A model generated the notes under the pieces. The model saw only the letters and a program-made list of their open reading frames with translations. It had not been told where the DNA came from and made no database searches. 64,000 nucleotides of DNA. Origin: an uncultured Bdellovibrionales bacterium (lineage in GTDB: Bacteria > Bdellovibrionota > Bdellovibrionia > Bdellovibrionales > JAMPXM01). Made by a program: the position numbers and the translations under genes. Below, piece after piece: positions 808 to 50,933 of the stretch (the first letter of the stretch is position 1; the number at the start of each line of letters is the position of its first letter). The stretch is from assembly GCA_964405465.1 (NCBI GenBank), contig CAYONZ010000015.1, positions 3,721 to 67,720 of the forward strand, read 5' to 3'.

Positions 808-878
808 CTCCGTCCCCCTCGGTTAGCAAGATTTTCTCTATGTAGACTCCGATTTAAAGAGTGTTTGAGGGGACGGAG
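808..878. repeat. inverted doublet of the GGGGACGGAG word (CTCCGTCCCC at 808-817, GGGGACGGAG at 869-878, 51-nt spacer)
   Basis: Both 10-mers read directly. Intergenic, between the divergent hypothetical gene and flagellin 1. Confidence 0.9.
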
Positions 879-1015
879 CCGACAAAAGTTGCACCAACTT
901 CAGGTCCCATCGCGAATCATTACGACACATCTTCATGTTCAAATCTGATAAAATCGATATGATTGAGATTTTACAGTTCCTTTGTCCAGAACTTGATCAA
1001 AATGAGAAAAAGTTC

Positions 1016-1042
1016 TCAAGCTTCAGAATGAGACGCCGATCA
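1016..1042 (+). promoter_or_regulatory. candidate sigma-28 (FliA) promoter of flagellin 1
   Basis: TCAA-N15-GCCGATCA compared with the consensus TAAA-N15-GCCGATAA, about 90 nt upstream of the ATG. Confidence 0.35.
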
Positions 1043-1083
1043 GTTAGGCATGAAGTAAGCCCATCGAGCTTTAACCGGCTCAC

Positions 1084-1105
1084 GGAACCTCAAGGAATGA
1101 GGTCC
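1084..1105 (+). promoter_or_regulatory. 5' leader hairpin presenting AGGAA in its loop (CsrA-type site candidate)
   Basis: GGAACCTCA / TGAGGTCC stem with one bulge and loop AGGAA. A second GGA lies in the SD AAGGAGGAGG at 1115-1124. Confidence 0.3.
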
Positions 1106-1128
1106 TGTATCTTCAAGGAGGAGGAAAT

Positions 1129-1974
1129 ATGGGTCTGCGTATTAACACGAACACCGCTTCGCTCAATGCCCAAAGAAATTTAATGGGCACGAAGTGGGGT
1201 CTCGATAAGAGTTTGGAACGATTGTCTTCGGGATACCGAATCAATCGCGCAGGGGACGACGCCGCGGGGCTGGCGATCTCAGAAAACCTGCGAGCCCAAA
1301 CAAGGGGTCTAAAACAAGCCTCACGAAACGCACAAGATGGTGTCTCGATGGTGCAGGTTGCGGAAGGTGGACTGAATGAAGTCAGTTCGATTCTCATCCG
1401 ACTACGAGAACTAGCGGTGCAAGCGGCTTCAGATACGATCGGGCCAGTTGAGAGACAATTCCTCAACGTGGAATACGATCAGCTGGTCTCGGAGGTTGAT
1501 AGGATCGCCGACAGCACTGAATTCAACGGCACACCACTCTTGAGTGGAACGGGATCGATTCTCGACTTTCAAGTCGGTACACGAAACGATCCGAATATTG
1601 ACCGTCTCTCATTTGACGCTTCGAAAGCAGATGCCAACACGGCGGCATTAGGTGTGAACCTAACGAGTGTTGCAGACAAAGCTTCGGCGCAAAATAGTTT
1701 GTCAGCGATTGACCAAGCGATTGTGAGCGTTTCTGCGATGCGAGCCGATTTCGGTGCGATTCAGAACCGTCTACAATCAACCATCGGAAACCTAGCTGTA
1801 TCGGTTGAGAACCTCTCTGCCGCAAACAGCCGAATCCGAGATGTGGATGTCGCTGAAGAGACTGCGGAATTGACTAAGAATAATATCTTACTCAGCGCCG
1901 GCACCTCAGTGTTAGCACAGGCGAATTCGTCGGCTAACACAGCATTGCAGCTCTTGAACAAGTCGATGCAGTAA
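1129..1974 (+). CDS. fliC: flagellin
   Basis: N-terminus MGLRINTNTASLNAQRNL and C-terminus LSAANSRIRDVDVAEETAELTKNNILLSAGTSVLAQAN are canonical flagellin D0/D1 segments. Strong SD upstream. Confidence 0.92.
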   Translation: MGLRINTNTASLNAQRNLMGTKWGLDKSLERLSSGYRINRAGDDAAGLAISENLRAQTRGLKQASRNAQDGVSMVQVAEGGLNEVSSILIRLRELAVQAASDTIGPVERQFLNVEYDQLVSEVDRIADSTEFNGTPLLSGTGSILDFQVGTRNDPNIDRLSFDASKADANTAALGVNLTSVADKASAQNSLSAIDQAIVSVSAMRADFGAIQNRLQSTIGNLAVSVENLSAANSRIRDVDVAEETAELTKNNILLSAGTSVLAQANSSANTALQLLNKSMQ

Positions 1975-2510
1975 GGATTGTACGCAATCTTTAACTGAAG
2001 GGTACGATCCTAACCACCCTCAATAGCGCGACTTGCTCAGAGAACTGAGCGCTGAATTGATGCTATTAAAACGCCATGTCTTAGGACTGGTGGATGACCA
2101 ACACTGTTTCCTGCTCGACGGGGTCTGAAAGACGGCTCCGTTATTCTGCAGTTTCGGCGAGTGTCAACTTCGTTTTCCGAACCTACAGAAAGAGGAACCA
2201 AAAACTGAATATGTTTTCACGTTGAACGTAAGGATTCGATCAACCTTTGTATTTTGAAAAGATTGAATTCAGACACTTTGCACCTGCCTTTGGCTAAAAT
2301 TCAACTCGTGAAGAAAATGATGGAGTTCTGATGAGCGCTCCAATGCCCACCAACACAATCACCCGATTCTGTTTTTCGAAAAAATATCCTGCTACACAAA
2401 CTGAATTTTTGATTTTGAACTCTTTCTCCAAATGCCAGGCATCAAGCTGCAGATCATAGATTCATGGTATTCATCTATACTATATTTGATCCATCCATCC
2501 ACCTCAACGA

Positions 2511-2539
2511 CAAATACAAAATAGATTTTTTCCGATAAA
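2511..2539 (+). promoter_or_regulatory. weak candidate sigma-28 promoter of flagellin 2
   Basis: CAAA-N16-TCCGATAA. The -10 matches 7 of 8 positions but the -35 is poor. It would give a leader of about 200 nt. Confidence 0.22.
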
Positions 2540-2751
2540 TTCCCACAAAATTTGTGTAAACAATATTTGTTTTTTACAAAACTCTAGACTCTATTTTTTT
2601 GTTGGTGTTCCGAAAAGAGATTAGGTGGAGAATAAAAAATATTTTGTCGCACAGGCATCCACCCCTGACGACGCAAATCGCGGTGCACGACGCACCCGTA
2701 GCCCAAGGAAGGCAACATTCAAGGAGGATTAGGTTATGCAGGGAGGATAAA

Positions 2752-3585
2752 GTGGCTTTAAGAATTACAACAAACGTGGCGTCACTGAACGCTCAAAAGA
2801 ATCTCGGGGCAACCCAACACTTGATGGAAAGATCGATGGCACGACTCAGTTCGGGTTTTCGAATCAATCAAGCGGCAGACGACGCCGCGGGATTGGCCAT
2901 CAGCGAAAACTTGAAAGCGCAAATTCGCGGACTCCGTCAGGCTTCACGAAACGCCAACGACGGTATCTCACTTGTGCAAGTCGCGGAAGGTGGTCTCAAC
3001 GAGGTCTCGAATATGCTCATTCGTTTACGCGAACTAGCTGTTCAAGCGTCTTCAGATACTATAGGTGATACCGAGAGAAAATTTACCGACGTCGAATATC
3101 AACAGTTGAAGTCGGAAATTCAACGGATCACTGAAGTGACGTCTTTTAACGGACGCGATTTATTGAACGGAACTGGTGGTTTGATTGATGTACAGGTCGG
3201 AACTCATAATGATGCTTTTAAAGACCGTATCTCTTTCAACGCTTCGGCTGCCAATGCAAGCCTTGAAGCACTTGGAATCACAGTCAACACTGTTGCAACA
3301 AAAGAGATGGCGCAACAGAGTATCGATGTGGTCGACAAAGCATTAGTTTCGGTCAATGCCATTCGCGCCAACTTTGGTGCTCTACAAAACAGGCTTCAGT
3401 CGACGACTGCTAACTTAGCTATCAGCGATGAAAACCTGTCAGCAGCCAACAGCCGCGTACGTGATGCAGACGTCGCAGCAGAAACAGCGGAAATGACTCG
3501 AAACAATATCTTGCTTCAAGCTGGAGTATCAGTCTTGGGACAAGCGAATCAGCAGAGTCAAATCGCGCTTAAGCTCTTGGGTTGA
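2752..3585 (+). CDS. fliC: flagellin (tandem paralog)
   Basis: A GTG start after GGGAGGA gives (M)ALRITTNVASLNAQKNL, which aligns with the start of flagellin 1. The track ORF from 2599 is an unsupported N-terminal extension. The C-terminus LSAANSRVRDADVAAETAEMTRNNILLQAG is conserved. Confidence 0.9.
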   Translation: MALRITTNVASLNAQKNLGATQHLMERSMARLSSGFRINQAADDAAGLAISENLKAQIRGLRQASRNANDGISLVQVAEGGLNEVSNMLIRLRELAVQASSDTIGDTERKFTDVEYQQLKSEIQRITEVTSFNGRDLLNGTGGLIDVQVGTHNDAFKDRISFNASAANASLEALGITVNTVATKEMAQQSIDVVDKALVSVNAIRANFGALQNRLQSTTANLAISDENLSAANSRVRDADVAAETAEMTRNNILLQAGVSVLGQANQQSQIALKLLG

Positions 3586-3610
3586 TGGAAATAGCACTAA
3601 GGAGAAACTT

Positions 3611-3691
3611 ATGAAGGCAATGATCATTGAGTGGTCTGGTTCAGTTCTCACAGTTGCTCTCTCGGGAGCAGCGCTGTACCTTTCACTCTAG
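3611..3691 (+). CDS. candidate 26-aa hydrophobic small protein (MKAMIIEWSGSVLTVALSGAALYLSL)
   Basis: ATG preceded by AAGGAGA at 3598-3604. It lies between the flagellin stop and the terminator. Too short for the ORF track. Confidence 0.3.
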   Translation: MKAMIIEWSGSVLTVALSGAALYLSL

Positions 3692-3701
3692 TCTATCAAG
3701 G

Positions 3702-3727
3702 AGGCCCCTTAGGGGGGCCTTTTTTTA
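3702..3727 (+). terminator. rho-independent terminator
   Basis: AGGCCCC-ttagg-GGGGCCT stem-loop followed by TTTTTT. Confidence 0.8.
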
Positions 3728-3864
3728 CTAAACTAAACCTAGCGAGCCACTTCCCACCACATTCTAAGCACTCAACAGGTGAATTCCTGCGCTTCGACTG
3801 CCAGATCTGAGCTTCATCGGCTTTTTTTTCTTGCAGAATCCGCAACTCAATCGTAAAAAAAATT

Positions 3865-4155
3865 ATGAAAAAAGATTATTCACCACTCGGACAACTCCTA
3901 AAAGACGGTCGTGTTGCTGCTGGCCTTACACAAGCTGAAGTTTCAGCAAAGCTTGGCCATGCAACTCCCCAATATCTTTCCAATTGCGAACGTGGACTTT
4001 GCGGCCTGCCATTACAAGCAATTCGCAAGCTCATTGATCTTTACAACTTGGATCAGACTCAAGTTCTTAAAATTTTGATGGATGAACAAGAGCGTATTAT
4101 CAAGGCGCAGTTGTTTAAAAAAGAAGTATCGAGAGTAAAAAAAGCCAAAGCTTAA
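3865..4155 (+). CDS. XRE-family helix-turn-helix transcriptional regulator
   Basis: GLTQAEVSAKLGHATPQYLSNCERG is a typical Cro/C1 HTH. Confidence 0.75.
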   Translation: MKKDYSPLGQLLKDGRVAAGLTQAEVSAKLGHATPQYLSNCERGLCGLPLQAIRKLIDLYNLDQTQVLKILMDEQERIIKAQLFKKEVSRVKKAKA

Positions 4156-4201
4156 ATATAGATTGGGCAAATCTGCTCGATCTCTTTCTCCGGGAGGGTC
4201 C

Positions 4202-4900
4202 ATGCTTTCGACGGCAACCGAAACACAGAGCTTCGACCAGGAACTAGTCGATCTACTTCAAGATGTGGCAAGGCTCGCTAAAGCATATAGAGCCCCAATC
4301 AGAGCCGTTCCTCTCAACTTCAAAGAAACATTAAAGAATCTCTCCCTTGAGCAAGTTGCCGCAATGAAGACCTGTCTTCGCTTTGTACGGGACACAACTC
4401 TGCGCGCTTGCGGACCTGGCGGTGAGCTTCCATCCGAGCAAACGCTTTTAAAGTCGGCTCTAGAAAGCCTTGGTCTGGAACCGATGTCTGATGATCTTTA
4501 TTCTACGCTTGAACATGAAGACATTATCGAGGTTCATGATCTTTCAGGAACACAGATCTATCGAAATTTCGAGGCCTTCAATCTCATTAGCTTCACCCTT
4601 TTTGATTTGATGGCAAACCCTTGGTACACGCTTTATTCACGACCGCAGTTGGCCAGCGAAGCCATTCAGCGCCGAATGCTAGAGCTTATGAGTAGTCCCA
4701 AAGGTGTAGAGGATGCCAAAATTCCAGATCACTTGATCACGGAACTTGAGGTTGAAATGCCCCGGTCCATTTTACTGAGCTTTAAAAAAGTGGCCCCTCT
4801 GCGTAGCAAGGCCACTGGAGAAATCGCTGCATTTTTTTCGACGAAATCAGCTCGCTTGATTGCTCACGGAGAAGAAACGAGCAAGATTGCCTTTATTTAA
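4202..4900 (+). CDS. hypothetical protein
   Basis: ORF with GGGAGGG before the ATG at 4202 (the track ORF starts at 4163). No family recognised. Confidence 0.5.
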   Translation: MLSTATETQSFDQELVDLLQDVARLAKAYRAPIRAVPLNFKETLKNLSLEQVAAMKTCLRFVRDTTLRACGPGGELPSEQTLLKSALESLGLEPMSDDLYSTLEHEDIIEVHDLSGTQIYRNFEAFNLISFTLFDLMANPWYTLYSRPQLASEAIQRRMLELMSSPKGVEDAKIPDHLITELEVEMPRSILLSFKKVAPLRSKATGEIAAFFSTKSARLIAHGEETSKIAFI

Positions 4901-5533
4901 TTCTTCACGAACCGCGGGATCAGCAGCTTGTAATAAGACCTCTCTATACAATACAAGAGACTGATCGAAATTTTTCTTCACAATTTCTTGGGTTTCAGCC
5001 GGGAGTCCTTGTAGAAACTGAAGGGCATGAGGAAAATGGTCTTGATCCACTTCTTCATGAAGAGCAAGAAACTTACAAGCCTTTCCCATTCCGGCGGCAT
5101 TTACCTTTTTTAAAATTTGTTTTGAGTAAAGATAAGTTAACCCCTCAAGCACTGTGATGTATCCAAACATTGCCATTGGATTGACGTGTTGAATTTGAAA
5201 AAATTGGATTTCATAGAAGTTTCTCGTCTGGGGAGCTTCAGGGTATTGGTCAAGTCGAGCCCCCAAGCAATGCAGATCTTGCTTCAAAAGATGCTCATGC
5301 CCCTTTTCTTCTGTCGCATGGTCAATAAAGCGAACTCTAATTTTTTCGAGAGATTTATCGCAGTTTCCAGCAACCAAACAAAGCAGCTGGTGAGTGTGAT
5401 CTACATAATGGTAGGTTTGGGCTAGATAATTAATATAGAACTCTCGATTTTCCCAAGGCAGGCTTAATGCAAACTTTCCGAAATCGGCCAATTGACTCTC
5501 TATATATTCTCTTAAAATCATAGACACCCCCAT
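4847..5533 (-). CDS. heme-oxygenase-like fold diiron oxidase / iron-containing redox enzyme family protein (tentative)
   Basis: All-helical protein with paired carboxylate/His motifs (HATEEKGHEHL and LALHEEVDQDH), as in HO-like diiron enzymes. The start is at 5533 or 5521. Confidence 0.45.
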   Translation of the reverse strand: MGVSMILREYIESQLADFGKFALSLPWENREFYINYLAQTYHYVDHTHQLLCLVAGNCDKSLEKIRVRFIDHATEEKGHEHLLKQDLHCLGARLDQYPEAPQTRNFYEIQFFQIQHVNPMAMFGYITVLEGLTYLYSKQILKKVNAAGMGKACKFLALHEEVDQDHFPHALQFLQGLPAETQEIVKKNFDQSLVLYREVLLQAADPAVREELNKGNLARFFSVSNQAS

Positions 5534-5579
5534 ATTCGTTTTGTGCAATCCGGCCATTAGAAAAATCCAGTTCAATCGC

Positions 5580-6302
5580 TTAGGAAGCTCGGGCAAATAC
5601 CGGACGATCTATATTGACCGCGTATTTTCGCTTTCGCCAAATTTCCATTACAGCCATTCTGGCCTTTGGGTGTTCAATTGGCTTGTGGTTCTCTTTGGTC
5701 AAAACGATCAAATCAATTTCAAGTTTCGAGGGTTCATGAAAAAATGTATGTAGCACTCTTGCGCCCAAATTTTCTGCCATTTTCGTTACACCAAGATTTT
5801 GCCGGGTCGACCCTAACAAAGCCTCCGCATCACTTTCAAGAAATCTTTCACACAAGAGTGCACCAAGCAGATCCTTTACTGAAACTCCCCCAGTCCGCCC
5901 ACGCCAATTCGGATGAACCGTTGTATGGCTCGAAACCAAAAACTTTTTCCCAAACTTTTCTAAAACACCGTGAGCTTCTGGACGCCAGAGTGTCGAAAAA
6001 TAGCCGTCCTCTCGGTTTGCTGGAAGAGAGAAATCGACAAAGTCCATGAGCATGACCGCAACACACTCTGCTCCGTAAAATATGGCAAGAATTTCATCTT
6101 GTCGGAGAAATGAGTCGGACGTTTGTTGATGATTGGGTTTGCGCTCTTGCCAAAATTCTTGCCAGACATTCTTCCACATAGAATAGGCACTATTGTAGTC
6201 GCGAACAAACTCATTTGACGGATTTTTTCCAGGAAGAATCACAACTCTAAATAGCGACATATTCAATCTAAACACCTTAGACTCAGTGGAAATCTCACTC
6301 AT
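5580..6302 (-). CDS. GNAT-fold acyltransferase, N-acyl amino acid synthase / LuxI-like (tentative)
   Basis: Start at MSEIST after GGAGG. Overall resemblance to Acetyltransf_5 / autoinducer-synthase-like proteins. Not a confident family call. Confidence 0.35.
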   Translation of the reverse strand: MSEISTESKVFRLNMSLFRVVILPGKNPSNEFVRDYNSAYSMWKNVWQEFWQERKPNHQQTSDSFLRQDEILAIFYGAECVAVMLMDFVDFSLPANREDGYFSTLWRPEAHGVLEKFGKKFLVSSHTTVHPNWRGRTGGVSVKDLLGALLCERFLESDAEALLGSTRQNLGVTKMAENLGARVLHTFFHEPSKLEIDLIVLTKENHKPIEHPKARMAVMEIWRKRKYAVNIDRPVFARAS

Positions 6303-6633
6303 ATTTTCCTCCGAATGCATACGTCTCCATTTAGCGCACAACACAAACGTTGGCACACCACTATGCAGACAATTGACACATTCTTAACTAAATAGTTTTT
6401 ATTGATACAGCTCACTATCGATTCTGAGTCACTCGATCATAAGATTCAAGAGTCAGTGTTAAAATTCCCAAAATTTCTTCACATATTGACAAGCTTTATT
6501 TATAACTATTTTTTATTTAGACGTAGGTATTTTAAGGACTTAGTAAAATCATATTTTAAAAAAACTGACTAATTTTTGATATCTCATCTAGAGACTTCGA
6601 TAGAGGCATTGTGCCAATTCGACACAATTCGAA

Positions 6634-7389
6634 CTAGAATTTCATAAACTTTATTAAATCCGCCATCGCTTGCGGATTATCCCAAGGAACTCGGTGGCCA
6701 GCTCCAGATACAATTGATAACCGCTGAGTCGCAGGTTTATCTATTTCGGAGAGAACTTTGGTGAACTTTTGATCTCGCTCGCCACATATCCAATGAATTG
6801 GCACTGAAACCGATTGAAGTTCTTTTCGTAGGTCTCTCTGCAAACCAAGCGACCAATTCTTCAGCGCCCAAGACAAGGTCAGCCTATCAAAATCGGCCTC
6901 ATCGCGACGCAAGTGCCTTTCACTTGCTACTGACGAGGCAAGTACCTCTTGCGAATTCCACTCATCAACGATCTCATGCCACTGCGATGAACAAAATTTA
7001 TTTGCCCAATTCGCGTCATTGTCTCGGCGCTGCTTTCGCAGCTGTTCATCCCATTCTGCAAGACCAGGATGTGCTGATATGAAGACTGCTTCAACAAAAC
7101 GCGACGGCGCCATGAGGAGAATATGCATCGCGAGCCGTCCACCCAGAGAGTAACCCACTAGTAATGGTTTGACCGGGTCTTCAACAATCTCAAGTGTCTT
7201 CAAAAAACTTTGTGCAAAAAAATCGAAAGCATTGTCTTCTGAGGAACACTGAAATGAACTGGCATTGGTCTTTATCCATTGCCATAGATCAATCGCTTCG
7301 ACCTGAACATCCTTGCCCCACTCGAGCCGGTTCCAGTCGGAAGGCAATCCCAAAAAACCATGAATGACTACAATGCGACGTTTTTCCAA
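6634..7389 (-). CDS. menH: 2-succinyl-6-hydroxy-2,4-cyclohexadiene-1-carboxylate synthase (alpha/beta hydrolase)
   Basis: HGFLG and GYSLGG nucleophile elbow. Overlaps the menD 3' end by 22 nt. Confidence 0.75.
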   Translation of the reverse strand: MEKRRIVVIHGFLGLPSDWNRLEWGKDVQVEAIDLWQWIKTNASSFQCSSEDNAFDFFAQSFLKTLEIVEDPVKPLLVGYSLGGRLAMHILLMAPSRFVEAVFISAHPGLAEWDEQLRKQRRDNDANWANKFCSSQWHEIVDEWNSQEVLASSVASERHLRRDEADFDRLTLSWALKNWSLGLQRDLRKELQSVSVPIHWICGERDQKFTKVLSEIDKPATQRLSIVSGAGHRVPWDNPQAMADLIKFMKF

Positions 7390-9089
7390 AGGGCCTCAAA
7401 TTGCGAGTTGAAGTTTTTAGATTGTTGCGCGTCTGGGCGAATTTCAACAACACGCCATCCACGATGGCCTCGCCCCTCGATCTCCCCTTGGCGACAGACG
7501 TTTTCCACTGACTGCCAACACTCGTAAGAAAGATTCCACATTTCTGCCCATTTTCGAAAATCTAGCTGATGATTATTTTGAAAAAGCTCACTTCGAAATA
7601 TTCCTTCGAAGATCTTGCCGCCAGCATTATTCATCACCACAATTGTTCCACTATCTGCTTCAAGACATGGCAAGATCCAAGGCGCCTCTAAATTGTAAAG
7701 TGTCGTGAGGTCACCAAACAAACCCCAGTTATGAACCTTGGCGCGAGCTAAACCCAAAAATGTCGAGATCTGGCCATCGATACCATTCACTCCCCGATTT
7801 GCATCGACCACTATACGTTTCACTCGTTGGCCAAAATTATCCCACTGGCGAATGGAGAGGCTGTTGCCAACATACATAATGTCGTCGCACCCAACCAATT
7901 TGGATAAATGGAAAACCATGGAAGCTTCCGAATTAGAATATCGCTGCAGCAAATCTTTCACTTGTTTTTCAATACGCGAGTCAAGCGCCAGAAGATCTGA
8001 ACTGGACGAATCCGTTGGAGCCTCAGCCAGAGACATTCTCAGCGGAATTGCACCTTCCAACATCATCGCCGAAATGGCGCTCAATGGGGTTTGCAAAAAC
8101 CATCCTCGCCCCAAGCCAGCAAACTCAAGATGGTGAATCGAAAGAACTGAAACAGGACAATTGGCATTGTCCAAATCACGCCAAACCCTTACCGTTGGAA
8201 CTCCCCCCAAACGGAGAACCCCATCATAAAGACGCTTATGCAAGCCAAGACTAAGAAGTCGGTCGCCCGATTTTATTGCGAAAGGATTTAGGTCTGGATC
8301 CTCCCGCAGTCCTGACGTACCTTCCAGGTAAACAGGAAGTTTAAGACTCAATAATATTTGTTTACATGCGGCCTGCTCTACAGCAGAGCACAACGTCCCC
8401 ACAATCACCACAGGTGATTTTGAACCGTTGAAAAAATCTTGAAAAGAATCCACTATCGTTTTTGCCGGGATTTTTTTTTGTTTTACAAAATCGACAGCAA
8501 CCGAAAACTCCTCTGCCAGCGAGACTAAGTCTAGAGGTTCAATTGGACCATCAAGCAAGGGTTCATCAAAGCAAATATTGACATGAACTGGGCGAGACGA
8601 TTCCAAGTCGGCCAAACTCAAATTCAACGGCTCATTTTCAAGATCAAAAGCTTGGGCTACATAATGGCTAAAAATTCCAGGCTGCACGATGGACTGAGGA
8701 GCTCCCGTTCCCCGCAAACGTTTCGGCCTGTCTGCCGTCAATAACACCAGTGGAACGCCTGAATAAAATGCCTCGACTGTTGCCGGAAGTAGCTCTGCCA
8801 CCGCAGTGCCACTCGTGGTAATAACGGCCACCGGGCGTTGGGTCGCTCGAGCTCTACCTAATGCAAAAAATCCAGCCGAACGCTCTTCAAAAAATGACCA
8901 GATTTTGAAGCCTTGAGTTTTTTCGAGTTGCATGATCAGCGGAGCATTGCGAGCTCCAGCACAGAAGATCACATCGCGAACGCCAGTCCGATAAAGTTCC
9001 TGCAGTACCTGTCTCGCCAATTCAATATTTGAATTTGGACCGCACCTCAAATCACCCGATGCTAAATTTGGAACTACTTGATTGGTCAT
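7368..9089 (-). CDS. menD: SEPHCHC synthase (ThDP-dependent)
   Basis: Length and sequence are typical of MenD (GVRDVIFCAGARNAPL, TSGTAVAELLPA). It sits between menF and menH. Start taken at MTNQVV. Confidence 0.88.
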   Translation of the reverse strand: MTNQVVPNLASGDLRCGPNSNIELARQVLQELYRTGVRDVIFCAGARNAPLIMQLEKTQGFKIWSFFEERSAGFFALGRARATQRPVAVITTSGTAVAELLPATVEAFYSGVPLVLLTADRPKRLRGTGAPQSIVQPGIFSHYVAQAFDLENEPLNLSLADLESSRPVHVNICFDEPLLDGPIEPLDLVSLAEEFSVAVDFVKQKKIPAKTIVDSFQDFFNGSKSPVVIVGTLCSAVEQAACKQILLSLKLPVYLEGTSGLREDPDLNPFAIKSGDRLLSLGLHKRLYDGVLRLGGVPTVRVWRDLDNANCPVSVLSIHHLEFAGLGRGWFLQTPLSAISAMMLEGAIPLRMSLAEAPTDSSSSDLLALDSRIEKQVKDLLQRYSNSEASMVFHLSKLVGCDDIMYVGNSLSIRQWDNFGQRVKRIVVDANRGVNGIDGQISTFLGLARAKVHNWGLFGDLTTLYNLEAPWILPCLEADSGTIVVMNNAGGKIFEGIFRSELFQNNHQLDFRKWAEMWNLSYECWQSVENVCRQGEIEGRGHRGWRVVEIRPDAQQSKNFNSQFEALWKNVAL

Positions 9090-36052: not shown

Positions 36053-36700
36053 CTATTTACCTTTATCGATAATTCGCCCCTCATACATATAAAACACATC
36101 TCCGCCAAATACTTCGACATCTCCTGGGTCATGTGTAATCAGCATTGTTGGAATTTTATTTCTCTCAATCAGTGATTTTATCAATGATCTGGCCTCTGCT
36201 TTATTTTCAGCATCCAACGCTGAAAATGGCTCGTCCAACAGCAATATCCTTGGCTGTCTAGCAATCGCTCTTGCTATTGCGACTCGCTGTTTTTCACCTC
36301 CAGACAATTCTCCACCCTTTCGATCGGCACATCCACTCAAACGCAATTGATCTATTAAACTCTGAACACGGAGGCTCCGTCCCTTTTTGTCGCCTCCGAC
36401 TAAAGTCAGGGGAAATTCTATATTTTCTCTGACTGTCATATGTGGAAATATTTCTAAACTCTGAAAAACTACACCAATATTTCTTTCCAAATGACTAATT
36501 TTTAAAAGGTCCGTCCCCTTCCATTCCCAAGTCCATTCTTGCTGTGGTATTTCCAAACCAATTAGAGAACGAAAAAGAGTTGTCTTGCCGGATCCCGAAG
36601 GTCCCAGCAAACAAGTAGCTCCAATATCTGACAAAAACAATTCGGGTACATTCAAACAGAAACTACCCAACCTAACCTTAAGGTTTCTTATAACCGACAT
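36053..36700 (-). CDS. thiQ: thiamine-type ABC transporter ATP-binding protein
   Basis: Walker A GPSGSGKTT, signature LSGGEKQRV and Walker B LLLDEPFSALD. Last gene of the thiB-thiP-thiQ arrangement. Confidence 0.7.
   Translation of the reverse strand: MSVIRNLKVRLGSFCLNVPELFLSDIGATCLLGPSGSGKTTLFRSLIGLEIPQQEWTWEWKGTDLLKISHLERNIGVVFQSLEIFPHMTVRENIEFPLTLVGGDKKGRSLRVQSLIDQLRLSGCADRKGGELSGGEKQRVAIARAIARQPRILLLDEPFSALDAENKAEARSLIKSLIERNKIPTMLITHDPGDVEVFGGDVFYMYEGRIIDKGK
36375..36384 (-). repeat. GGGGACGGAG motif, 9/10 copy
   Basis: CTCCGTCCCt on the + strand. In thiQ (K-G-R-S-L). Confidence 0.6.
36509..36518 (-). repeat. GGGGACGGAG motif, 9/10 copy
   Basis: gTCCGTCCCC on the + strand. In thiQ (K-G-T-D-L). 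Confidence 0.6.
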
Positions 36701-38141: not shown

Positions 38142-38168
38142 CGTTTTAACTCTAGTTGGAATTTTTGC

Positions 38169-44459: not shown

Positions 44460-45359
44460 TCACTTTTTGCGACTTTGCAAAATAGCTTGATGCTCCTGGC
44501 TCCACCAGTGTTTTTCAAATAGTTTGGCTTCATTGGTGTTGGTCATTTTTTTAATGGAGCCGATAGGCTGCTGTGGGCCCTTTGTCGCAAAATCAAGCCA
44601 TTGTCGTGCCCGCTTTTCTGCAAAACTTTTATTGAAAGCCAATTCGTCGACAAGACCCATGGATTGTGCCTCATATGCATTTATTTGATCGGTTGATACC
44701 GCAAGTAATCGAAATGCAGATTTGGAGATTCGATTTTGTAACCGCTCTCCTCCACCCCAACCTGTCGTAAGCCCGTTCTTTCGCTGCCACAACCCAAAAT
44801 ACACGTGTGGAGTGGCCACTACAAAGTCAAAGCAACTCAATAGCTCCAGCCCACCACCCCAGCAATCACCATCGACCACAACAGCTGTTGGAAATTGTAT
44901 TAAATAAATATAATTTAGTATTCGCTGTATCTCACTATTTACTTGTCTGCCTTCGAGTGCGGTTTTCATTCGTGCATAGTTCTTGAGATTCCCGCCCGAA
45001 CAAAAAATTCGATAATTGCTTTTGAATAAAAGCGCCCGACAAGAAGACTGGTTTTCTCGAATGATCTTCTCGAGGAGCTGCGCCGTCTCCAGACTAAAGC
45101 TATTACCATTTGTATGATCCCGAAATGTGATCTCAAGTACCCCATTTCGCAATTCTGAGTTCAGCGAAGGTACTTGACCATCTTGGTTTTCAATCAGAAG
45201 CGAGCTCTGGGAATCAATCCCGACGGTCGAATTTCTATGCAAAGGATTGGTACGCTCGCTATTTTGACTTTTCATTTTTTTCGTTTGCTCAATTCGCTTT
45301 TTTAGCGGCGTTTTCTTTACGACTTTCTTATGCGGCACCGTGGTCTCCACGCTTTGCAC
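44460..45359 (-). CDS. enoyl-CoA hydratase/isomerase (crotonase) family protein
   Basis: FCSGGNLKNY oxyanion-hole segment, with an N-terminal ~70-aa low-complexity extension. The start may be at 45275. Confidence 0.6.
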   Translation of the reverse strand: MQSVETTVPHKKVVKKTPLKKRIEQTKKMKSQNSERTNPLHRNSTVGIDSQSSLLIENQDGQVPSLNSELRNGVLEITFRDHTNGNSFSLETAQLLEKIIRENQSSCRALLFKSNYRIFCSGGNLKNYARMKTALEGRQVNSEIQRILNYIYLIQFPTAVVVDGDCWGGGLELLSCFDFVVATPHVYFGLWQRKNGLTTGWGGGERLQNRISKSAFRLLAVSTDQINAYEAQSMGLVDELAFNKSFAEKRARQWLDFATKGPQQPIGSIKKMTNTNEAKLFEKHWWSQEHQAILQSRKK

Positions 45360-46029
45360 GTGTCATATGAATCTTTCCGACAAACTCCACCCCAACACCG
45401 GTTTCTCCCGGCTGCATTTCCGGAGAAATCCAAACTGCCTTACAAGGCATAACATAGGTTTTATTGACGTCGTCAAGTGTAACGGTCACAGTCATCTGGT
45501 CTCCGATTTTTACTTCGACCACTTCTGGAATCAAAACGAAGGCCCCCCCCTTGGAGAGATTCAGCATTGTTGAATGGGTAAGCCCTGACTTTCCAGAAAA
45601 CGAAACCTTTGCCTCTTGTTCGGTAGCAAATCTTTTGTGAATTCGTTTTGCAATCTTGTCTTCAAACAATACCTTGCGCATCAATCCTATCAGATCCCGA
45701 ATCTGATAGGGCTTTTCTAAAAAAAAGACGTTTTCTAGGGACCGTAGAATTGTTCTCGCCTCTAGCGAGTCCGCTTTGGACAATACCAAAATCGGACCGC
45801 GGTAGCCTATCTTACGCGTCTCAACAATTGCCTGGTGAAAGACTTCGTTGAAAATGTTGGAGTTCAAAACCACGATACTCACATCTTTATCCACAGATTG
45901 GGGCAATAGCTGGGGACGGACCCCCACAAAAGCCAAAGCTTCTCCACCTCGCATGAGGGGCTCAACTTTTCTCTTTAAAAGGTGATTCTCTTCTTCGGTT
46001 TGACTTACCAAAAAAATCTTTGTCATCAC
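45328..46029 (-). CDS. receiver-like domain / PilZ domain protein
   Basis: C-terminal KRIHKRF and NLSKGGAF resemble the PilZ RxxxR and DxSxxG motifs. The N-terminal half has a CheY-like pattern. Confidence 0.55.
   Translation of the reverse strand: MMTKIFLVSQTEEENHLLKRKVEPLMRGGEALAFVGVRPQLLPQSVDKDVSIVVLNSNIFNEVFHQAIVETRKIGYRGPILVLSKADSLEARTILRSLENVFFLEKPYQIRDLIGLMRKVLFEDKIAKRIHKRFATEQEAKVSFSGKSGLTHSTMLNLSKGGAFVLIPEVVEVKIGDQMTVTVTLDDVNKTYVMPCKAVWISPEMQPGETGVGVEFVGKIHMTRAKRGDHGAA
45912..45921 (+). repeat. GGGGACGGAG motif, 9/10 copy
   Basis: GGGGACGGAc. In the REC/PilZ gene (sense strand V-R-P-Q). Confidence 0.6.
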
Positions 46030-46092
46030 TGTCTTATCGGCCTATCCGGGCCTCACTAAACAAGACAATCGCCCCACTTGGACCATAGCCCT

Positions 46093-46127
46093 GATTGTCC
46101 GAGCTATGACAAACCTCTCGGACAATC
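46093..46127. repeat. perfect 11-bp inverted repeat GATTGTCCGAG-N13-CTCGGACAATC
   Basis: Read directly in the 415-bp intergenic region upstream of nadE. Confidence 0.85.
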
Positions 46128-46171
46128 AATTTCACTCCGGCGAAATCCTCCCCCTTAACTCAAACTGGGAC

Positions 46172-46195
46172 CTCCAAATTTGGAGCTCCGTCCCC
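46172..46195. repeat. 14-bp palindrome CTCCAAATTTGGAG abutting an exact motif copy (CTCCGTCCCC at 46186-46195)
   Basis: Read directly. Intergenic. Confidence 0.9.
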
Positions 46196-46444
46196 CTTGG
46201 GTAAATTGGATCATGGGCGCAACTTACTAGAATGGTTGAATTAATTTGGAGCAACCAAAGAATTTGTGCGGCACCAGTACTAGTTCTTCAGTCAAGAAAT
46301 GTAGGTTCCATTTTCAATCAAAGACCAACGAGCCCTGGAGACATTTTGAATTCGCAACAGAATATGATCGATAGATTTTTCAACAAATGATAAATTGCCA
46401 CTAGACAATGAGCTTCGAGAATAAAATTAATTCGGAGAAAATAC

Positions 46445-48427
46445 ATGAAATACGTAAAAGTGGCGGCAGGTGTGGTCAACCAGACCCCACTCGACTGGAC
46501 TGGAAACAAGAATCGGATCCTGCAAACCATTGCGCATGCCCAAAAGAGTTCAGCATCGATTCTCTGCCTGCCTGAACTCTGTATTACCGGTTACGGGTGC
46601 GAGGACGCTTTTTTTTCTCCCTTCGTACATGACAAAGCTCTCCAGATATTAAAACAAATTCTGCCCCACACAGTGGGACTCGTGGTCACCCTAGGCTTAC
46701 CCATTTTTCACCAAGGTGCCATTTTCAACACCACGGCCGTCATCGCAAATGGGCAAATTCTCGGGTTCATTCCCAAGAAACAGCTCGCTGGGGACGGAGT
46801 CCACTACGAGAACCGATGGTTTAAGACCTGGCCAAACGATGTCTATGATTCACTCAAGCTCGATGGTTTAGATTACCCATTTGGAGATTTCTTTTTTGAG
46901 ATCGGCGACATCCGAATTGGCCTCGAAATCTGCGAAGAAGCTTGGGTCGCCAAACGCACAGGGGCGCAGCTCGCGCAGAAGGCAACAGACATCATTCTGA
47001 ATCCCAGTGCAAGTCACTTCGCCTTTGGAAAACACGAAGTTCGCAAACGATTTGTCCTCGAGGGCTCGCGAGCTTTTGGCGTGGCATACGTGTACACGAA
47101 TTTGGTAGGCAACGAATCGGGACGAATTATATTTGATGGTGGAGCGCTTATTGCCTCAAATGGTCAGATCGTGCTGCAATCTCCGCGTTTTTCTTTTGCC
47201 GACTCGGCCATTTATACTGCCGTAATTGATGTTGAGATGAATCGAACCAAACGCGCACAGACCGCAAGTTTCACACCTCTGATGGGGACGGACCCCTCGC
47301 TGATTCGAGTACCGTTTTCTTGGCTCGAGTGTAAACCCGAAATTTCTCATGCCGAGGTCCACGCTTGGGAACAAAGTGCTGATATTAAAAATGAAGAATT
47401 CTATCGTGCCGAGGTGCTAGCCCTATTCGACTATTTGAGAAAAAGCCGTTCTTCCGGATTTGCGGTTTCACTCTCTGGCGGAGTGGATTCTGCGGTTTGC
47501 GCTACCCTCGCCGCTAAGTGTTTCGAGTGCGCGGCCAAAGAAATTGGCCTAGATCAATTGAAAACTCGCCTCGCATACATCCCCAAGATCGACCGACACC
47601 TTTCCCTTCAATCCCTGACAAAACAAATGGTCCTGACTCTCTACCAAAGCACCCAAAACAGCTCCAATGACACCCGAAATGCAGCAACAAAAGTTGCTTT
47701 CGAGCTGGGGACGGAGCACCACCAGTGGAACATTGATGGCCTTCTCAAGGAGTATCACTCTCGGGTAGAAACCATTATTGGACGTCCTCTTTCCTGGGCC
47801 ACCGATGACATCGCCTTACAAAATGTCCAAGCTCGAGTGCGATCCCCAGGTGTCTGGATGCTCGCCAATCTCAGGGGTGCACTCTTGTTGGCAACCAGCA
47901 ATCGCAGTGAAGCCGCGGTCGGATACGCAACAATGGACGGCGACACCTCCGGGGGACTGAGCCCGATTGCGGGTGTCGATAAAGCATTTCTGCAAACATG
48001 GATTCGATGGATGGCAGAACACGGGCCAGCGGATGGAAACAAAGTGGCCTCCCTAGCTGAGGTCTATAAAGTGCCGCCCTCAGCCGAGCTCCGTCCCCCA
48101 GAAAAGCATCAAACCGATGAGGCAGATTTGATGCCTTACTCTGTTCTTGATGCTATTGAGCGGGCGTTTATTCGGGATCGCAAAGCACCACTCGAAATTT
48201 TGTCACTATTAAAAATACATTTCCCACAGTTTCCACCAGAGATGCTTCGCAATTGGACGTCTCGCTTTCTTCGACTCTGGGCACAGAATCAGTGGAAGCG
48301 TGAGCGATATGCTCCAGCATTTCACCTTGATGACGAGAGCCTAGACCCCAAAACCTGGTGCAGATTCCCGATATTATCCAATGGATTCATTGATGAAATA
48401 GAGGACATTAAAAATTGGAACCCTTAG
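46445..48427 (+). CDS. nadE: glutamine-dependent NAD+ synthetase
   Basis: N-terminal CN-hydrolase domain (LEICEEAW) and C-terminal NAD synthetase domain with P-loop SLSGGVDSAV. Confidence 0.9.
   Translation: MKYVKVAAGVVNQTPLDWTGNKNRILQTIAHAQKSSASILCLPELCITGYGCEDAFFSPFVHDKALQILKQILPHTVGLVVTLGLPIFHQGAIFNTTAVIANGQILGFIPKKQLAGDGVHYENRWFKTWPNDVYDSLKLDGLDYPFGDFFFEIGDIRIGLEICEEAWVAKRTGAQLAQKATDIILNPSASHFAFGKHEVRKRFVLEGSRAFGVAYVYTNLVGNESGRIIFDGGALIASNGQIVLQSPRFSFADSAIYTAVIDVEMNRTKRAQTASFTPLMGTDPSLIRVPFSWLECKPEISHAEVHAWEQSADIKNEEFYRAEVLALFDYLRKSRSSGFAVSLSGGVDSAVCATLAAKCFECAAKEIGLDQLKTRLAYIPKIDRHLSLQSLTKQMVLTLYQSTQNSSNDTRNAATKVAFELGTEHHQWNIDGLLKEYHSRVETIIGRPLSWATDDIALQNVQARVRSPGVWMLANLRGALLLATSNRSEAAVGYATMDGDTSGGLSPIAGVDKAFLQTWIRWMAEHGPADGNKVASLAEVYKVPPSAELRPPEKHQTDEADLMPYSVLDAIERAFIRDRKAPLEILSLLKIHFPQFPPEMLRNWTSRFLRLWAQNQWKRERYAPAFHLDDESLDPKTWCRFPILSNGFIDEIEDIKNWNP
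46790..46799 (+). repeat. GGGGACGGAG motif copy (exact)
   Basis: In nadE (A-G-D-G-V-H). Confidence 0.9.
47284..47293 (+). repeat. GGGGACGGAG motif, 9/10 copy
   Basis: GGGGACGGAc. In nadE (M-G-T-D-P). Confidence 0.6.
47707..47716 (+). repeat. GGGGACGGAG motif copy (exact)
   Basis: In nadE (L-G-T-E-H). Confidence 0.9.
48089..48098 (-). repeat. GGGGACGGAG motif copy (exact)
   Basis: CTCCGTCCCC in the sense of nadE (E-L-R-P-P). Part of the 13-mer GAGCTCCGTCCCC. Confidence 0.9.
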
Positions 48428-48665
48428 AGTTATACCTGTAGGCGTACAAGGCAATTGTCGCTGTCTCTAGATCACTGGAACACAATGGATCTATACCTCA
48501 ACCTACTGATTGAGTGTCCCGATTTCCACTGCCCAAAGTTTTCACGTTTTTGAGCAGTGTATAAGCCATCGACACTCAGGAAGAAATTCTAGAGCTACAA
48601 AAATTTAGCCATCCACTTTCGAGATGATCATTTTTCTGGCTCCGATTACAGGGTAAGATGCGGCG

Positions 48666-49847
48666 ATGGCGAGAATCTTCAATAGAAAATTCTATTTCGA
48701 GCTAATCTTAAGCGTCCTAATAGGTACACTTTTACCCAAAGTTTCACTGGCAAGAGCAGAATCGATTTCTATCAAGGCAGACCAAGTTGTGTCGCACGTT
48801 AATCGTGTTTGGTATGGACGAATTCATAAAATTCTAGAATTCAGAGTTTTTGATCTCCGACATTGCTCTACATCCTTTCGGCAAATGACTCTCCAGCGTT
48901 TCAATCAAATGAGTCTCGATTCCTCAGACTCGATCGCTCTGACACAGCTTCTTGAGTTCTACCAACATACTCACTCTCCACAAATTGAGATGAACTGCCA
49001 AATGCAACTCGATAAGAACGAAAATCTTTTTTGGAAACATGAGACAAGGGCCTTTAAAATTCCTAAATTAATTTTTCCTATGTCAACAGTACTTCAAGAG
49101 CTCAATCCACATTGCATCTCAAGGCAAGTGCCATCACTCAATGGCAAATATGACTCTAATCCGTGTTTGGCCGCAGACGAAATGATTGGTCGCGGACTTA
49201 TGACCGACCTCGAACTGTGGCATTCCCAAATGTCACAAATCAACACTGAACTTCGAGTTCGATTTTCCGAAAGGACAGACAAAAATCCCTCTATAGATCT
49301 CTATGCGGTATTTCTATCGGCCACTTCCACAAGAGATACGCCTGAAAATCGGGAGCGAGCGATCGCGATGGTGGCAGGGGCACTGGCCTCGGCTCCAAGT
49401 TGGTCGGCCTACTTTGACGGAATCACCGATGTAGTTTGGAGAGACCAAATGAAGGACAGTAGGTATTCATTGTCCCCCCGCGAAATCCAAAAACTCGTGG
49501 AATTCATCCCTGCGCTTCGTTTACAGATCGACGAACTCAGCCAACTTTTCAAGTGGGGACGGAGCAATGTCGAAGGAATGAATTGGCAGGGGATCGACCT
49601 CTCGGATAGCAATCACCACAACATGATGTCCGCATATTTAGCATGCCATTACCGAGAGCGGACGGCACTGACCCATGAATTTCTTCCTAAGCTAATGGGA
49701 CAGATCTACGAAGCAAAAGACTTTGCCTCACACCTTCTTGTCGACAAAGACAGTTGGCCGATTGCCGTCCAAAATTTTACGACAGACACAAATCGCTACT
49801 CCGCTGGCGCCGAATGGGGCTACCGCTTTTGTAAAATGAGGCTTTAG
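48666..49847 (+). CDS. hypothetical secreted protein
   Basis: 393-aa ORF with a signal-peptide-like N-terminus. No family recognised. Confidence 0.45.
   Translation: MARIFNRKFYFELILSVLIGTLLPKVSLARAESISIKADQVVSHVNRVWYGRIHKILEFRVFDLRHCSTSFRQMTLQRFNQMSLDSSDSIALTQLLEFYQHTHSPQIEMNCQMQLDKNENLFWKHETRAFKIPKLIFPMSTVLQELNPHCISRQVPSLNGKYDSNPCLAADEMIGRGLMTDLELWHSQMSQINTELRVRFSERTDKNPSIDLYAVFLSATSTRDTPENRERAIAMVAGALASAPSWSAYFDGITDVVWRDQMKDSRYSLSPREIQKLVEFIPALRLQIDELSQLFKWGRSNVEGMNWQGIDLSDSNHHNMMSAYLACHYRERTALTHEFLPKLMGQIYEAKDFASHLLVDKDSWPIAVQNFTTDTNRYSAGAEWGYRFCKMRL
49555..49564 (+). repeat. GGGGACGGAG motif copy (exact)
   Basis: In the hypothetical gene (K-W-G-R-S-N). Confidence 0.9.
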
Positions 49848-49903
49848 CGGCAACGCCCAAATACTCCAAATTTGTTTGGGCCAACTCGGCTCGATACGAC
49901 CGA

Positions 49904-49940
49904 GGCTCCGTCCCCCGGTCTTTGATTAGGGGACGGAGCC
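49904..49940. repeat. perfect 12-bp inverted repeat GGCTCCGTCCCC-N13-GGGGACGGAGCC (motif doublet)
   Basis: Read directly. Intergenic, between the hypothetical gene and menB. No T-run follows it. Confidence 0.95.
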
Positions 49941-50132
49941 CAGTGATTGCGGGCACAAGAGATCTAAGCCGTGGACCGGGCGCGCGAGGCGTTAGATGGA
50001 ACTGTCCGGGATTCCGGCTACATTTTTTTTTGTAATTCTGCTAAACCCTCAGGCACACTAAGTCGCACCATTTTTCTAATCACCTGCAGGAGGATTCGCG
50101 TGGGCACATCAAAATCAGAAGTTTGGATAAAA

Positions 50133-50933
50133 ATGAAAGACTACACCGACATCAAGCTTGAAAAAACAGCCGATGGCGTGGCCAAGGTAACCATAAATCG
50201 ACCCGAAGTTCGCAATGCATTTCGCCCACTCACGGTGCAGGAACTTCAAGATGCATTTAATATTTGCCGAGATGACGGCTCAGTTGGCGTTGTGATTCTC
50301 ACCGGAGCTGGTGATTTAGCTTTTTGTTCAGGTGGAGACCAACGAGTTCGTGGCACTGGCGGCTATGTCGGTGGGGACGGAGTCCCTCGGTTAAACGTAC
50401 TTGATCTTCAAAAACAAATTCGCAGCATCCCAAAACCCGTGATTGCCATGGTTGCCGGATACGCAGTTGGCGGAGGACACGTACTCCACGTCGTCTGTGA
50501 TCTTTCAATTGCCGCCGACAACGCTCGCTTCGGACAAACCGGACCAAAAGTTGGATCATTCGATGGCGGTCTCGGCAGCAGTTATCTCGCCAGAATTGTG
50601 GGCCAAAAGAAAGCTCGTGAAATTTGGTACCTCTGCCGTCAATACGACGCCCAACAGGCTCTCGACATGGGACTCGTCAATGCCGTTGTTCCTCTGGCAG
50701 AGCTTGAAACCGAAACTCTCAAATGGTGCCGCGAAATTCTCGAACACTCACCGCTTGCGCTTCGCTGCTTAAAGGCCTCACTCAACGCAGATTGCGATGG
50801 GCAAATGGGTCTTCTCGATTTGGCCGGTAACGCCACACTTTTGTATTATCTCTCAGAAGAAGCAAAAGAAGGAAAACAGGCCTATTTGGAAAAGCGTCAG
50901 CCTGATTTTTCTAAGTTTCCACGATTACCATAA
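50133..50933 (+). CDS. menB: 1,4-dihydroxy-2-naphthoyl-CoA synthase
   Basis: Near-full-length similarity to MenB ([41 protein letters not shown]). The track ORF from 49971 is an unsupported N-terminal extension. Confidence 0.92.
50373..50382 (+). repeat. GGGGACGGAG motif copy (exact)
   Basis: In a variable loop of menB (V-G-G-D-G-V-P). Confidence 0.9.

Follow-up and report, generated by a model that had tools for sequence, protein, structure and literature searches.

A ten-nucleotide word close to saturation in 26 kb of a Bdellovibrionales chromosome, possibly the core of a REP element linked to a RAYT-type gene

The DNA analysed here (the window) is composed of 64,000 bp from an uncultured Bdellovibrionales bacterium (assembly GCA_964405465.1, contig CAYONZ010000015.1, positions 3,721 to 67,720 of the forward strand). 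A short word, GGGGACGGAG or its complement, has a total of 27 exact copies in the window, counting both strands, and 25 of these are within 25.7 kb of housekeeping genes (24666-50382; binomial p = 1.8e-8), a word-rich stretch or core that also holds six one-mismatch copies. Regarding its origin, we tentatively propose, with a probability of about 40%, that the word is the core of a repetitive extragenic palindromic (REP) element linked to a REP-associated tyrosine transposase (RAYT), and that it was spread by a substitution-type drive, either limited in cis or lineage-wide. The RAYT link is the best-supported identity because a RAYT-type gene is found in the word-rich stretch and because the unit is the REP of a RAYT elsewhere. 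A known family accounts for the identity of the word; its substitution mode, near-saturation and sharp boundary are not explained by known mechanisms.

An earlier reading of the window (the original prediction) had given a coordinate and a strand for each of the 27 copies, and all of them were reproduced. Dinucleotide shuffles predict 0.06 copies in the window (largest value 1), and Markov models (orders 1-5; training on the window after masking of the copies) predict 0.03-0.07. The claimed over-representation therefore stands, at a value of at least 400-fold by these shuffles and models and not the approximately 200-fold first proposed. When synonymous codons were shuffled, with each protein and the codon usage of each gene held constant, 0.39 +/- 0.62 coding copies were obtained (largest 4 in 2000 runs) versus 21 observed. 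GGGGACGGAG ranks first among the 10-mers of the window and has sharp limits, with 32 counts for the 8-mer core, 30 for the 9-mer, 27 for the 10-mer and 14 for the best 11-mer. Five copies with nine matches out of ten had been listed and are confirmed, and a sixth at 47952 (GGGGACTGAG) had been overlooked; two-mismatch copies are at background level throughout the window. In the flanks, the GAGCTCCGTCCCC context was recovered in five copies, as claimed, and the T-rich run said to follow CCCC is not significant (positions -1 to -5). The 3' side has a significant extension, with Y at +1 in 23 of 27 copies, Y at +2 in 22 and C at +3 in 19, present in all reading frames and in intergenic DNA, and the effective site is thus GGGGACGGAG-Y-Y-C. 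No 5' flank consensus was found across the 27 copies. The window contains no longer repeat family, in agreement with the view of a short word and not a long mobile element, and the word differs from its own reverse complement, so that it is non-palindromic, as stated before. Its density in the word-rich stretch, 0.97 per kb, does lie in the range of the DNA uptake sequences (DUS) of Neisseriaceae and the uptake signal sequences (USS) of Pasteurellaceae, and a literature search found no paper mentioning GGGGACGGAG, which agrees with the claim that it had not been described. In orientation, 17 copies are C-rich and 10 are G-rich on the plus strand. Three contigs of the Logan collection, an independent assembly of run SRR12487046, match positions 45273-53684 (L001), 1-3250 (L122) and 27410-38184 (L177) of the window with 100% identity and contain 18 of the copies; because they reproduce them, the word is not an assembly artefact. 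An explanation by an RNA family was rejected, since the only one found in the window is a tRNA-Leu (30353-30439).

Analysis of the coding copies is important in order to understand how the word arose. Among the 27 copies, 21 (78%) are in open reading frames (ORFs) of at least 80 amino acids with Pfam-supported functions, 14 of them sense and 7 antisense. They use three sense frames (encoding GDG, GTE and GRS/GRR) and two antisense frames (LRP and PSP), and because all frames and the antisense strand are used, this is a word at the DNA level; a peptide motif was rejected on the same grounds. Comparison of NadE with 11 homologs placed none of its three exact copies at an indel; the copies encode the invariant L-A-G-D-G-V, the invariant E-L-R-P (antisense) and a G-T-E where homologs have G-[AT]-[EST]. 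With one further copy in RNase R (29168) and one in MenB, the testable single copies number five, and all five arose by substitution with no indel, two of them being synonymous at invariant residues and others amino-acid-changing at variable residues. These NadE, RNase R and MenB alignments led us to reject an insertion-element origin of the single copies, and the only copy that looks like an insertion is a doublet in RNase R (29751-29786). We then defined as permissive any coding position where synonymous changes suffice to give the exact word without altering the present protein. Of 22 permissive sites in the core, 21 are filled, versus none of seven in the flanks, where these sites are 3-5 positions away from the word. 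All six 9/10 copies are in ORFs, and in all six the correction of the mismatch would alter an amino acid. Such a pattern bears the mark of a strong directional pressure that favours the word at the DNA level and is halted only by purifying selection on proteins. The original prediction had noted neither the placement of 78% of the copies in ORFs by substitution, nor the near-saturation of the permissive sites, nor their emptiness in flanks of the same composition.

The identity of the word comes from two other genomes, both among the matches listed in an inverted-pair scan of genome contigs. The sole other match of the family profile among the loci searched is a Prosthecobacter locus with a bona fide RAYT (NCBIfam 87 bits, cutoff 80), on each side of which stands an inverted doublet built from a 17-nt palindromic unit. 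The upstream doublet is GGGGGACTCTGTCCCCC-N9-GGGGGACAGAGTCCCCC and the downstream one is GTGG-GGGACTCCGTCCCCC-N13-GGGGGACGGAGTCCCCC, with the exact word inside; GTGG has been reported as a variant of the head in a REP family of Verrucomicrobia (PMC3733652). Since these doublets flank a bona fide RAYT, the 10-mer can be read as the core of a REP mini-hairpin, GGGGAC-GGA-GTCCCC. In this reading the 10-mer would cover one arm of the stem and the 3-nt loop as well as the first base of the second arm, whose start would be the YYC extension. The RNase R doublet of the window repeats the two 15-nt units of the Prosthecobacter design with their order unchanged, and it is accordingly classified as a putative doublet of REPs (REPIN) of that design. 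In a metagenome-assembled genome (MAG) of Pseudohongiella (positions 359-7760 of the locus), 18 copies of the word were found in 8 kb, in arrays of GTAG-headed REP hairpins (GTAGGGGACGGAGGGATC-loop-GATCCCTCCGTCCCC) whose stems begin with the word; hairpins with 10-bp stems are also present. These arrays appear to be a classical REP family that shares the word. The window itself has three inverted doublets, the pair 808/869 and those at 29751-29786 and 49904-49940.

The RAYT-type gene of the window (35333-36049, + strand; Y1 HUH, IS200-like) encodes the HUH histidines H67 and H69 and the catalytic tyrosine Y128. The longer ORF that includes it (35204-36049) carries the HUH (SNHFH) and YxxxNP motifs and has no Pfam match. 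An exhaustive search retrieved 2388 representative homologs of approximately 240 amino acids, aligned over the full length from residue 1, which corresponds to the Met at 35333. Pfam Y1_Tnp is matched by 23 of 40 aligned family members, in which the HUH histidines and the tyrosine are nearly invariant. Judged by these alignments, membership in the RAYT group appears to hold at the superfamily level, with the subfamily assignment below threshold. The gene is on record at one locus only. Its G+C content is 0.38 at all three codon positions, with neighbours at approximately 0.52 in the first position, an atypical composition that suggests a recently acquired or decaying gene. One exact copy of the word is located 113 nt upstream of its start codon and an inverted 9/10 copy 326 nt downstream of its stop codon; at a local density of 1 per kb, this flanking is not significant alone. 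The chance of finding a RAYT-type gene within a given 26 kb is, by our own estimate and not by a tool, approximately 1-3%. A search of the PDB with the protein sequence was empty, and a single-sequence AlphaFold model was unusable (pLDDT 31). A hairpin with an 8-bp stem (35181-35209) immediately precedes the word copy at 35220. The role of a minimal REP recognised by the adjacent RAYT, one of the candidates of the original prediction, gains real support from the RAYT-type ORF and the Prosthecobacter doublets.

In the mechanism that we propose, the element would exist in two forms, a few inverted, REPIN-like doublets and a majority of single half-units written by substitution. A sequence-specific conversion drive would turn near-cognate sites, for example GGTGATGGTG, into the exact word, most plausibly depending on a RAYT-type enzyme that acts on single-stranded DNA. 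The enzyme would cleave and rejoin single-stranded DNA on either side of a near-cognate site and swap in the cognate core, a patch swap that would be chemically plausible for HUH enzymes. The predicted single-stranded substrates of the RAYT-type protein are DNA bearing GGGGACGGAGYYC or the full hairpin. Purifying selection on proteins would oppose the drive, which may act preferentially near the gene or throughout one parental lineage. The RAYT as agent, short-patch conversion as mechanism and the spatial range are what we infer. A narrower version, in which an enzyme (the RAYT-type HUH protein or another machine) 'paints' approximately 13 kb on each side of the gene, by short-patch replacement that leaves the length unchanged, until the protein-tolerated sites are full, seems rather improbable to us, and no mechanism is known for a local process; if true, such painting would be a new cis-acting molecular drive that rewrites housekeeping codons.

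Several observations weigh against the RAYT-linked drive. The window protein matches NCBIfam REP_Tyr_transpos only below threshold (E 3.8e-8, 33 bits, cutoff 80), and its identity with the Prosthecobacter RAYT is 23%, at which a shared specificity is not expected. The Prosthecobacter locus was found by searching with the word and thus shows only that the word can be a REP, and the 8 kb around its RAYT contain no exact copies beyond the flanking doublet. To our knowledge, no RAYT replaces a short patch without a change of length. REPs are normally extragenic, and 21 of the 27 copies are in ORFs here. In their location, origin, head and hairpin form, most copies depart from what characterises a REP. 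The full GGGGAC-GGA-GTCCCC unit is present in a few copies, and in approximately 20 of 27 there is one arm with the loop, after which comes YYC; only two copies (32163 and 46790) have the complement of GTAG after the word, and most lack a GTAG or GTGG head. Because most copies have neither second arm nor head, they cannot form the hairpin recognised by characterised RAYTs. REPs are mobilised by insertion, and all five testable single copies arose by substitution; the known intragenic REPs lengthen their proteins by 7-30 or more residues through in-frame insertion (PMC3733652). Finally, the right boundary is abrupt, the last copy at 50373 being followed by at least 17 kb without the word.

The distribution along the window has to be explained as well. 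Outside the core, the remaining 38 kb contain only the intergenic pair 808/869. The length of the word-free right flank (block C) is known from a Logan contig that extends beyond the window, and an extension of 3.3 kb at the window end has no copies. The right edge falls within menB, and the density is uniform, approximately 1 per kb, up to this edge, with no gradient. The window is ordinary chromosomal DNA, with a flagellin 91-95% identical to those of Pseudobdellovibrionaceae and Bdellovibrionales, and its genes include two flagellins, menaquinone and shikimate-type genes, an Opp transporter, UDG, RNase R, endonuclease III, Ddl, NadE and MenB; there is no close relative in the protein collection, the best NadE match being 60% identical. 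The core is not distinguishable from the flanks by tetranucleotide composition (r = 0.92-0.96), and relative synonymous codon usage (RSCU) correlates between blocks at r = 0.79-0.84, versus 0.77-0.89 in split halves within blocks. A test for a chimera or foreign island, based on tetranucleotide composition and RSCU, showed the blocks to be alike. The abrupt edge and the uniform density look more like a block boundary than a distance gradient, and a recombination mosaic, a domain barrier or a strain-chimeric assembly could each produce a boundary of this kind; the last is argued against at 50.4 kb because L001 crosses this position unbroken.

Comparison with related genomes places part of this distribution in time. 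The exact flagellin protein was found on contigs from four other sequencing runs, and two of these contigs are from different strains, with 87.6% and 94.5% nucleotide identity. The pair 808/869 is exact in both related strains (CTCCGTCCCCCT, GGGGACGGAGC), the spacing being 61 bp in the window versus 60 bp in L121, amid adjoining DNA that is approximately 50% diverged; an exact pair in such flanks indicates that the word is actively maintained in the clade. As an observation on the same region, the fliC1 promoter and 5' leader (approximately 950-1128) are 100% identical in three strains, and the adjoining 160 bp (790-950) are about half diverged except for the two word copies. Five family-level relatives (L126-L130, G+C 0.41-0.62) have no copies, and this includes their orthologs of the genes for RNase R, ABC1 kinase and NadE. 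Two of them, L128 and L129, keep fliC-fliC-ABC1-RNase R-tRNA adjacent. In the window, fliC2 and the ABC1 kinase gene are separated by block A (3586-26100, 22.5 kb), which has one word copy and includes menF/D/H, DAHP synthase, ubiE, shikimate-type genes, an AMP-ligase, an O-methyltransferase, oppABC, UDG, an HPF-like gene, OsmC and NIF3. Since fliC2 and ABC1 are adjacent in both relatives, block A is an insertion or translocation with respect to the inferred older order, and by that gene order the pair 808/869 would have adjoined the word-rich core before the arrival of block A. With block A removed, copies extend from approximately 12 kb left of the RAYT gene, the limit of the data on that side, to 14 kb right of it. 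A more distant relative shows no synteny at its NadE locus. Exact-protein matches for fliC2, for the 238-aa form of the RAYT and for ABC1 are not on record. A metagenome scan with the fliC-upstream pair and two viral scans yielded only unrelated GC-rich hairpins and tandem coding repeats. Among the matches listed in the inverted-pair scan there is also a Bdellovibrionota MAG (ABC1.69; L073, 951-1136; 42% G+C, same phylum) with three exact copies within 180 bp, intergenic and with similar flanks (CTCCGTCCCCAAT), and the word may therefore be present in other Bdellovibrionota lineages.

The block structure leads to a different account of the distribution, in which the region 26-50 kb and the fliC-upstream pair derive from a word-saturated lineage and the flanks from a word-free sister lineage, brought together by homologous recombination or by a strain-chimeric metagenome assembly. 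This ancestry mosaic explains the distribution and not the mechanism, and could possibly do so whether the word is spread by a RAYT drive, is an uptake signal or belongs to a binding array; we consider it unlikely as the answer, although it comes closest to the RAYT-linked drive in probability. It fits the abrupt boundary inside the conserved menB with uniform density up to it, the identical composition of core and flanks, as expected of sister lineages, the existence of 88-95% identical strains in other samples, the metagenomic origin of the contig and the reshuffling seen in block A. As a chimeric assembly it is opposed by the unbroken contig across the 50.4-kb boundary, and in any form by the active maintenance of the word, under which long-resident word-free DNA should gain copies, yet none of the seven flank sites is close to it. 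An uptake signal analogous to DUS and USS, or another genome-wide drive unrelated to a RAYT, is somewhat less probable still and yet a serious rival. Here word-bearing conspecific DNA would be preferred in uptake or recombination, and word-free blocks would have been acquired or replaced more recently. A 10-13 bp asymmetric word at this density, in both orientations and all frames, mostly in ORFs, installed by codon choice and at poorly conserved residues, is what such a signal would look like; the share in ORFs is 65% for USS and 35% for DUS, with 1471-1892 copies per genome of approximately 2 Mb (PMC2817400). The inverted pairs, the use in a terminator, the ratio of approximately 4:1 between exact and one-mismatch copies and the presence of the word in close relatives with absence from distant ones point the same way. 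Uptake sequences are missing from recently transferred genes (PMC2817400), and the word-poor block A is absent at this position in two relatives. The difficulty is that blocks A and C, at least 39 kb or approximately 60% of the window, would need to be recent arrivals, yet their composition is that of the core. Moreover, the menFDH genes of block A complement menBACE, of which menB is at the core edge and the rest in block C, so that the right boundary is inside a men operon. An uptake signal also leaves the RAYT gene and the REP-unit identity unexplained; no competence genes were found in the window, and no paper in the literature search described sequence-specific uptake or a competence specificity in Bdellovibrio or Bdellovibrionota.

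Selection at the level of the host could instead maintain an array of sites for a DNA-binding protein of the centromere, anchoring or nucleoid type that organises or marks a domain of 26-29 kb. The domain limits and sharp edge, an asymmetric site of approximately 13 bp in both orientations and the conservation of intergenic copies and of their spacing (61 versus 60 bp) in diverged strains are consistent with this idea, for which the parS cluster of Myxococcus xanthus, with approximately 24 sites, is a precedent (doi 10.1101/2021.05.05.442810). Known arrays are far sparser, or else compact and largely palindromic, like these 24 parS sites, mostly within 3 kb. The window has no parS at up to three mismatches, no parAB and no obvious partition or DNA-binding gene. 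The small benefit of a 27th redundant site is hard to reconcile with near-saturation and amino-acid-changing installations, and the REP-unit identity would again be unexplained; we regard such an array as improbable. Least probable by far is a polar word of the Chi or KOPS (FtsK orienting polar sequence) type, read by RecBCD/AddAB or FtsK, which the original prediction had also considered. The word is G-rich and over-represented in chromosomal genes, and the 17:10 strand excess is weak; this bias is not significant and largely follows gene orientation. The copies include inverted pairs and are clustered, and we know of no Chi or KOPS as long as 10-13 bp and of no polar word that tolerates inverted pairs. 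With its non-polar orientation and its length, the word does not support this role.

Site by site, the copies show how varied the installation is. The leftmost are the two members of the inverted pair, both intergenic, at 808-817 (-), upstream of fliC1, and 869-878 (+), the latter kept in L121 and L123. Next is the exact copy at 24666-24675 (+), which forms part of a terminator-like hairpin directly after the HPF-like gene: GGAGGGG-ACGGAG-CCCCTCT at 24663-24682 is built on the word and followed by T7 (region 24663-24689). RNase R has a sense copy at 29168-29177 (-), read as (W)GTE where orthologs have YGKH or YGPT, and a 9/10 copy at 30129-30138 (-), whose correction would change V to G. Its doublet, GGGGACTCCGTCCCC-TGCTTT-GGGGACGGAGTCCCC, contains the copies at 29756 (-) and 29772 (+) and has a perfect 16-bp stem (free energy, dG, -44 kcal/mol; z -5.8). 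In relation to L128 it appears to have been inserted, in frame and with a length of 36 nt, into the disordered N-terminal region of the protein; the comparison with L129 is ambiguous. So strong a hairpin in the mRNA could affect the translation of RNase R, itself an RNA-degrading enzyme. The tRNA-Leu, with anticodon CAG, is just upstream of RNase R and 92% identical to L128:17059-17149; in L128 a phage-integrase gene follows it, and this is likely an integration hotspot in the family.

Around the RAYT-type gene, exact copies are found antisense in a GNAT-NUDIX gene (32163-32172, +; TPSP), in sense in a methyltransferase gene, at its C-terminal end (32720-32729, -; GDGA) and at 33546-33555 (-; GTE), and upstream of the RAYT start codon (35220-35229, +). 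The ABC ATPase gene downstream has two 9/10 copies, at 36375-36384 (-; correction K to R) and 36509-36518 (-; D to E). The sole context shared between copies that exceeds the word length is a 27-nt unit, GGAGGCTCCGTCCC(C/T)TTTT(A/G)TCGCCTC, at 32715-32741 and 36370-36396; the two are 93% identical, both are in ORFs, one 2.6 kb upstream of the RAYT-type gene and the other 0.3 kb downstream of it, and they enclose the copies at 32720 and 36375, respectively. Further sense copies are in the ABC permease gene (37295-37304, -; GDGV) and in the solute-binding protein gene, which has four: 38277-38286 (GTE), 38621-38630 and 38963-38972 (both GDGA) and 39097-39106 (GRS), all on the minus strand. Antisense copies follow in a GNAT gene (40673-40682, -; LRP) and in a hypothetical gene (41668-42609), at 41762-41771 (-; PSP) and as two copies in direct orientation with starts at 42221 and 42242 (42221-42251, -; PSP...PSP).

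In the right part of the core, the PilZ gene has a 9/10 copy (45912-45921, +; correction V to L), and an exact intergenic copy lies between PilZ and NadE (46186-46195, -). NadE is the richest in information. The copy at 46790-46799 (+) was written by codon choice in the invariant G116-D117-G118, that at 47707-47716 (+) encodes the GTE mentioned above, and that at 48089-48098 (-) is antisense and encodes the invariant L549-R550-P551. The gene has two 9/10 copies, at 47284-47293 (+; D to E) and, in the invariant GGLSPIAG, at 47952-47961 (+; L to R). At 46790-46807 the invariant G-D-G-V-H-Y is encoded as GGGGACGGAGTCCACTAC, whose complement, GTAG-TGGAC-TCC-GTCCCC, is a headed REP-like hairpin wholly in invariant codons. 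A gene for a hypothetical protein of 393 amino acids has a sense copy (49555-49564, +; GRS), and an intergenic inverted doublet, GGCTCCGTCCCC-N13-GGGGACGGAGCC, at 49904-49940 contains the copies at 49906 (-) and 49929 (+), with a 12-bp stem (dG -35.8, z -4.4). The last copy, in MenB (50373-50382, +), encodes GDG where Escherichia coli and Salmonella MenB have DSG in the same loop. As a separate observation from the genome searches, a Collinsella hairpin with a 17-bp stem, CCTTTTCCTCCGTCCCC-N20-GGGGACGGAGGAAAACGG, was found at L003 1925-1985 and at least 60 other loci; it is one locus in dozens of genomes and has no Rfam family match.

REPs and RAYTs are widespread, and the function of RAYTs and the spread of REPs are standing questions. 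In the window a REP core behaves like an uptake sequence, with substitutions at invariant NadE codons, in RNase R and in MenB. If the RAYT link is true, the window would offer the first hint of a substitution-type (conversion) activity or drive tied to a RAYT, and part of REP biology would escape repeat scans restricted to extragenic DNA. Should the word prove to be an uptake signal, no other would be known outside Neisseriaceae and Pasteurellaceae, and it would occur in a predatory phylum flooded with prey DNA.

Among known systems, REP/REPIN-RAYT shares with the window a short GC-rich mini-hairpin unit, the three inverted doublets and a RAYT-type gene nearby, and differs in the intragenic half-units, their origin by substitution and the saturation of the permissive sites of a 26-kb stretch. 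Intragenic REPs (the GTAG families of Opitutus terrae and the Rickettsia palindromic elements, RPEs; PMC3733652) are of the same kind as the 36-nt doublet apparently inserted in RNase R, whereas the testable copies here add no residues and recode existing ones, even invariant ones. The DUS of Neisseriaceae (10-12 bp) and the USS of Pasteurellaceae (9-bp core) are similar in length, in density of approximately 1 per kb, in the use of both orientations and all frames, in codon-choice installation, in raised encoded tripeptides, in hairpins and terminators and in blocks without the word. In contrast to them, the word is very uneven over 67 kb, is found in a narrow lineage and not in a family, and is a REP unit that flanks a RAYT. 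HIP1 (highly iterated palindrome 1, GCGATCGC) of cyanobacteria is an abundant short word that codon choice has placed in coding sequence and whose conservation exceeds expectation; it is an 8-bp palindrome, genome-wide and linked to methyltransferase sites, whereas the word of the window is asymmetric, longer and clustered. The 24 parS sites of M. xanthus are likewise about two dozen protein-recognition copies in one chromosomal region, but each is a 16-bp palindrome and most are within 3 kb, and here the spacing is approximately 1 kb through genes. Overall, in behaviour the word resembles DUS and USS, and in sequence and neighbourhood it appears to belong to REP/RAYT.

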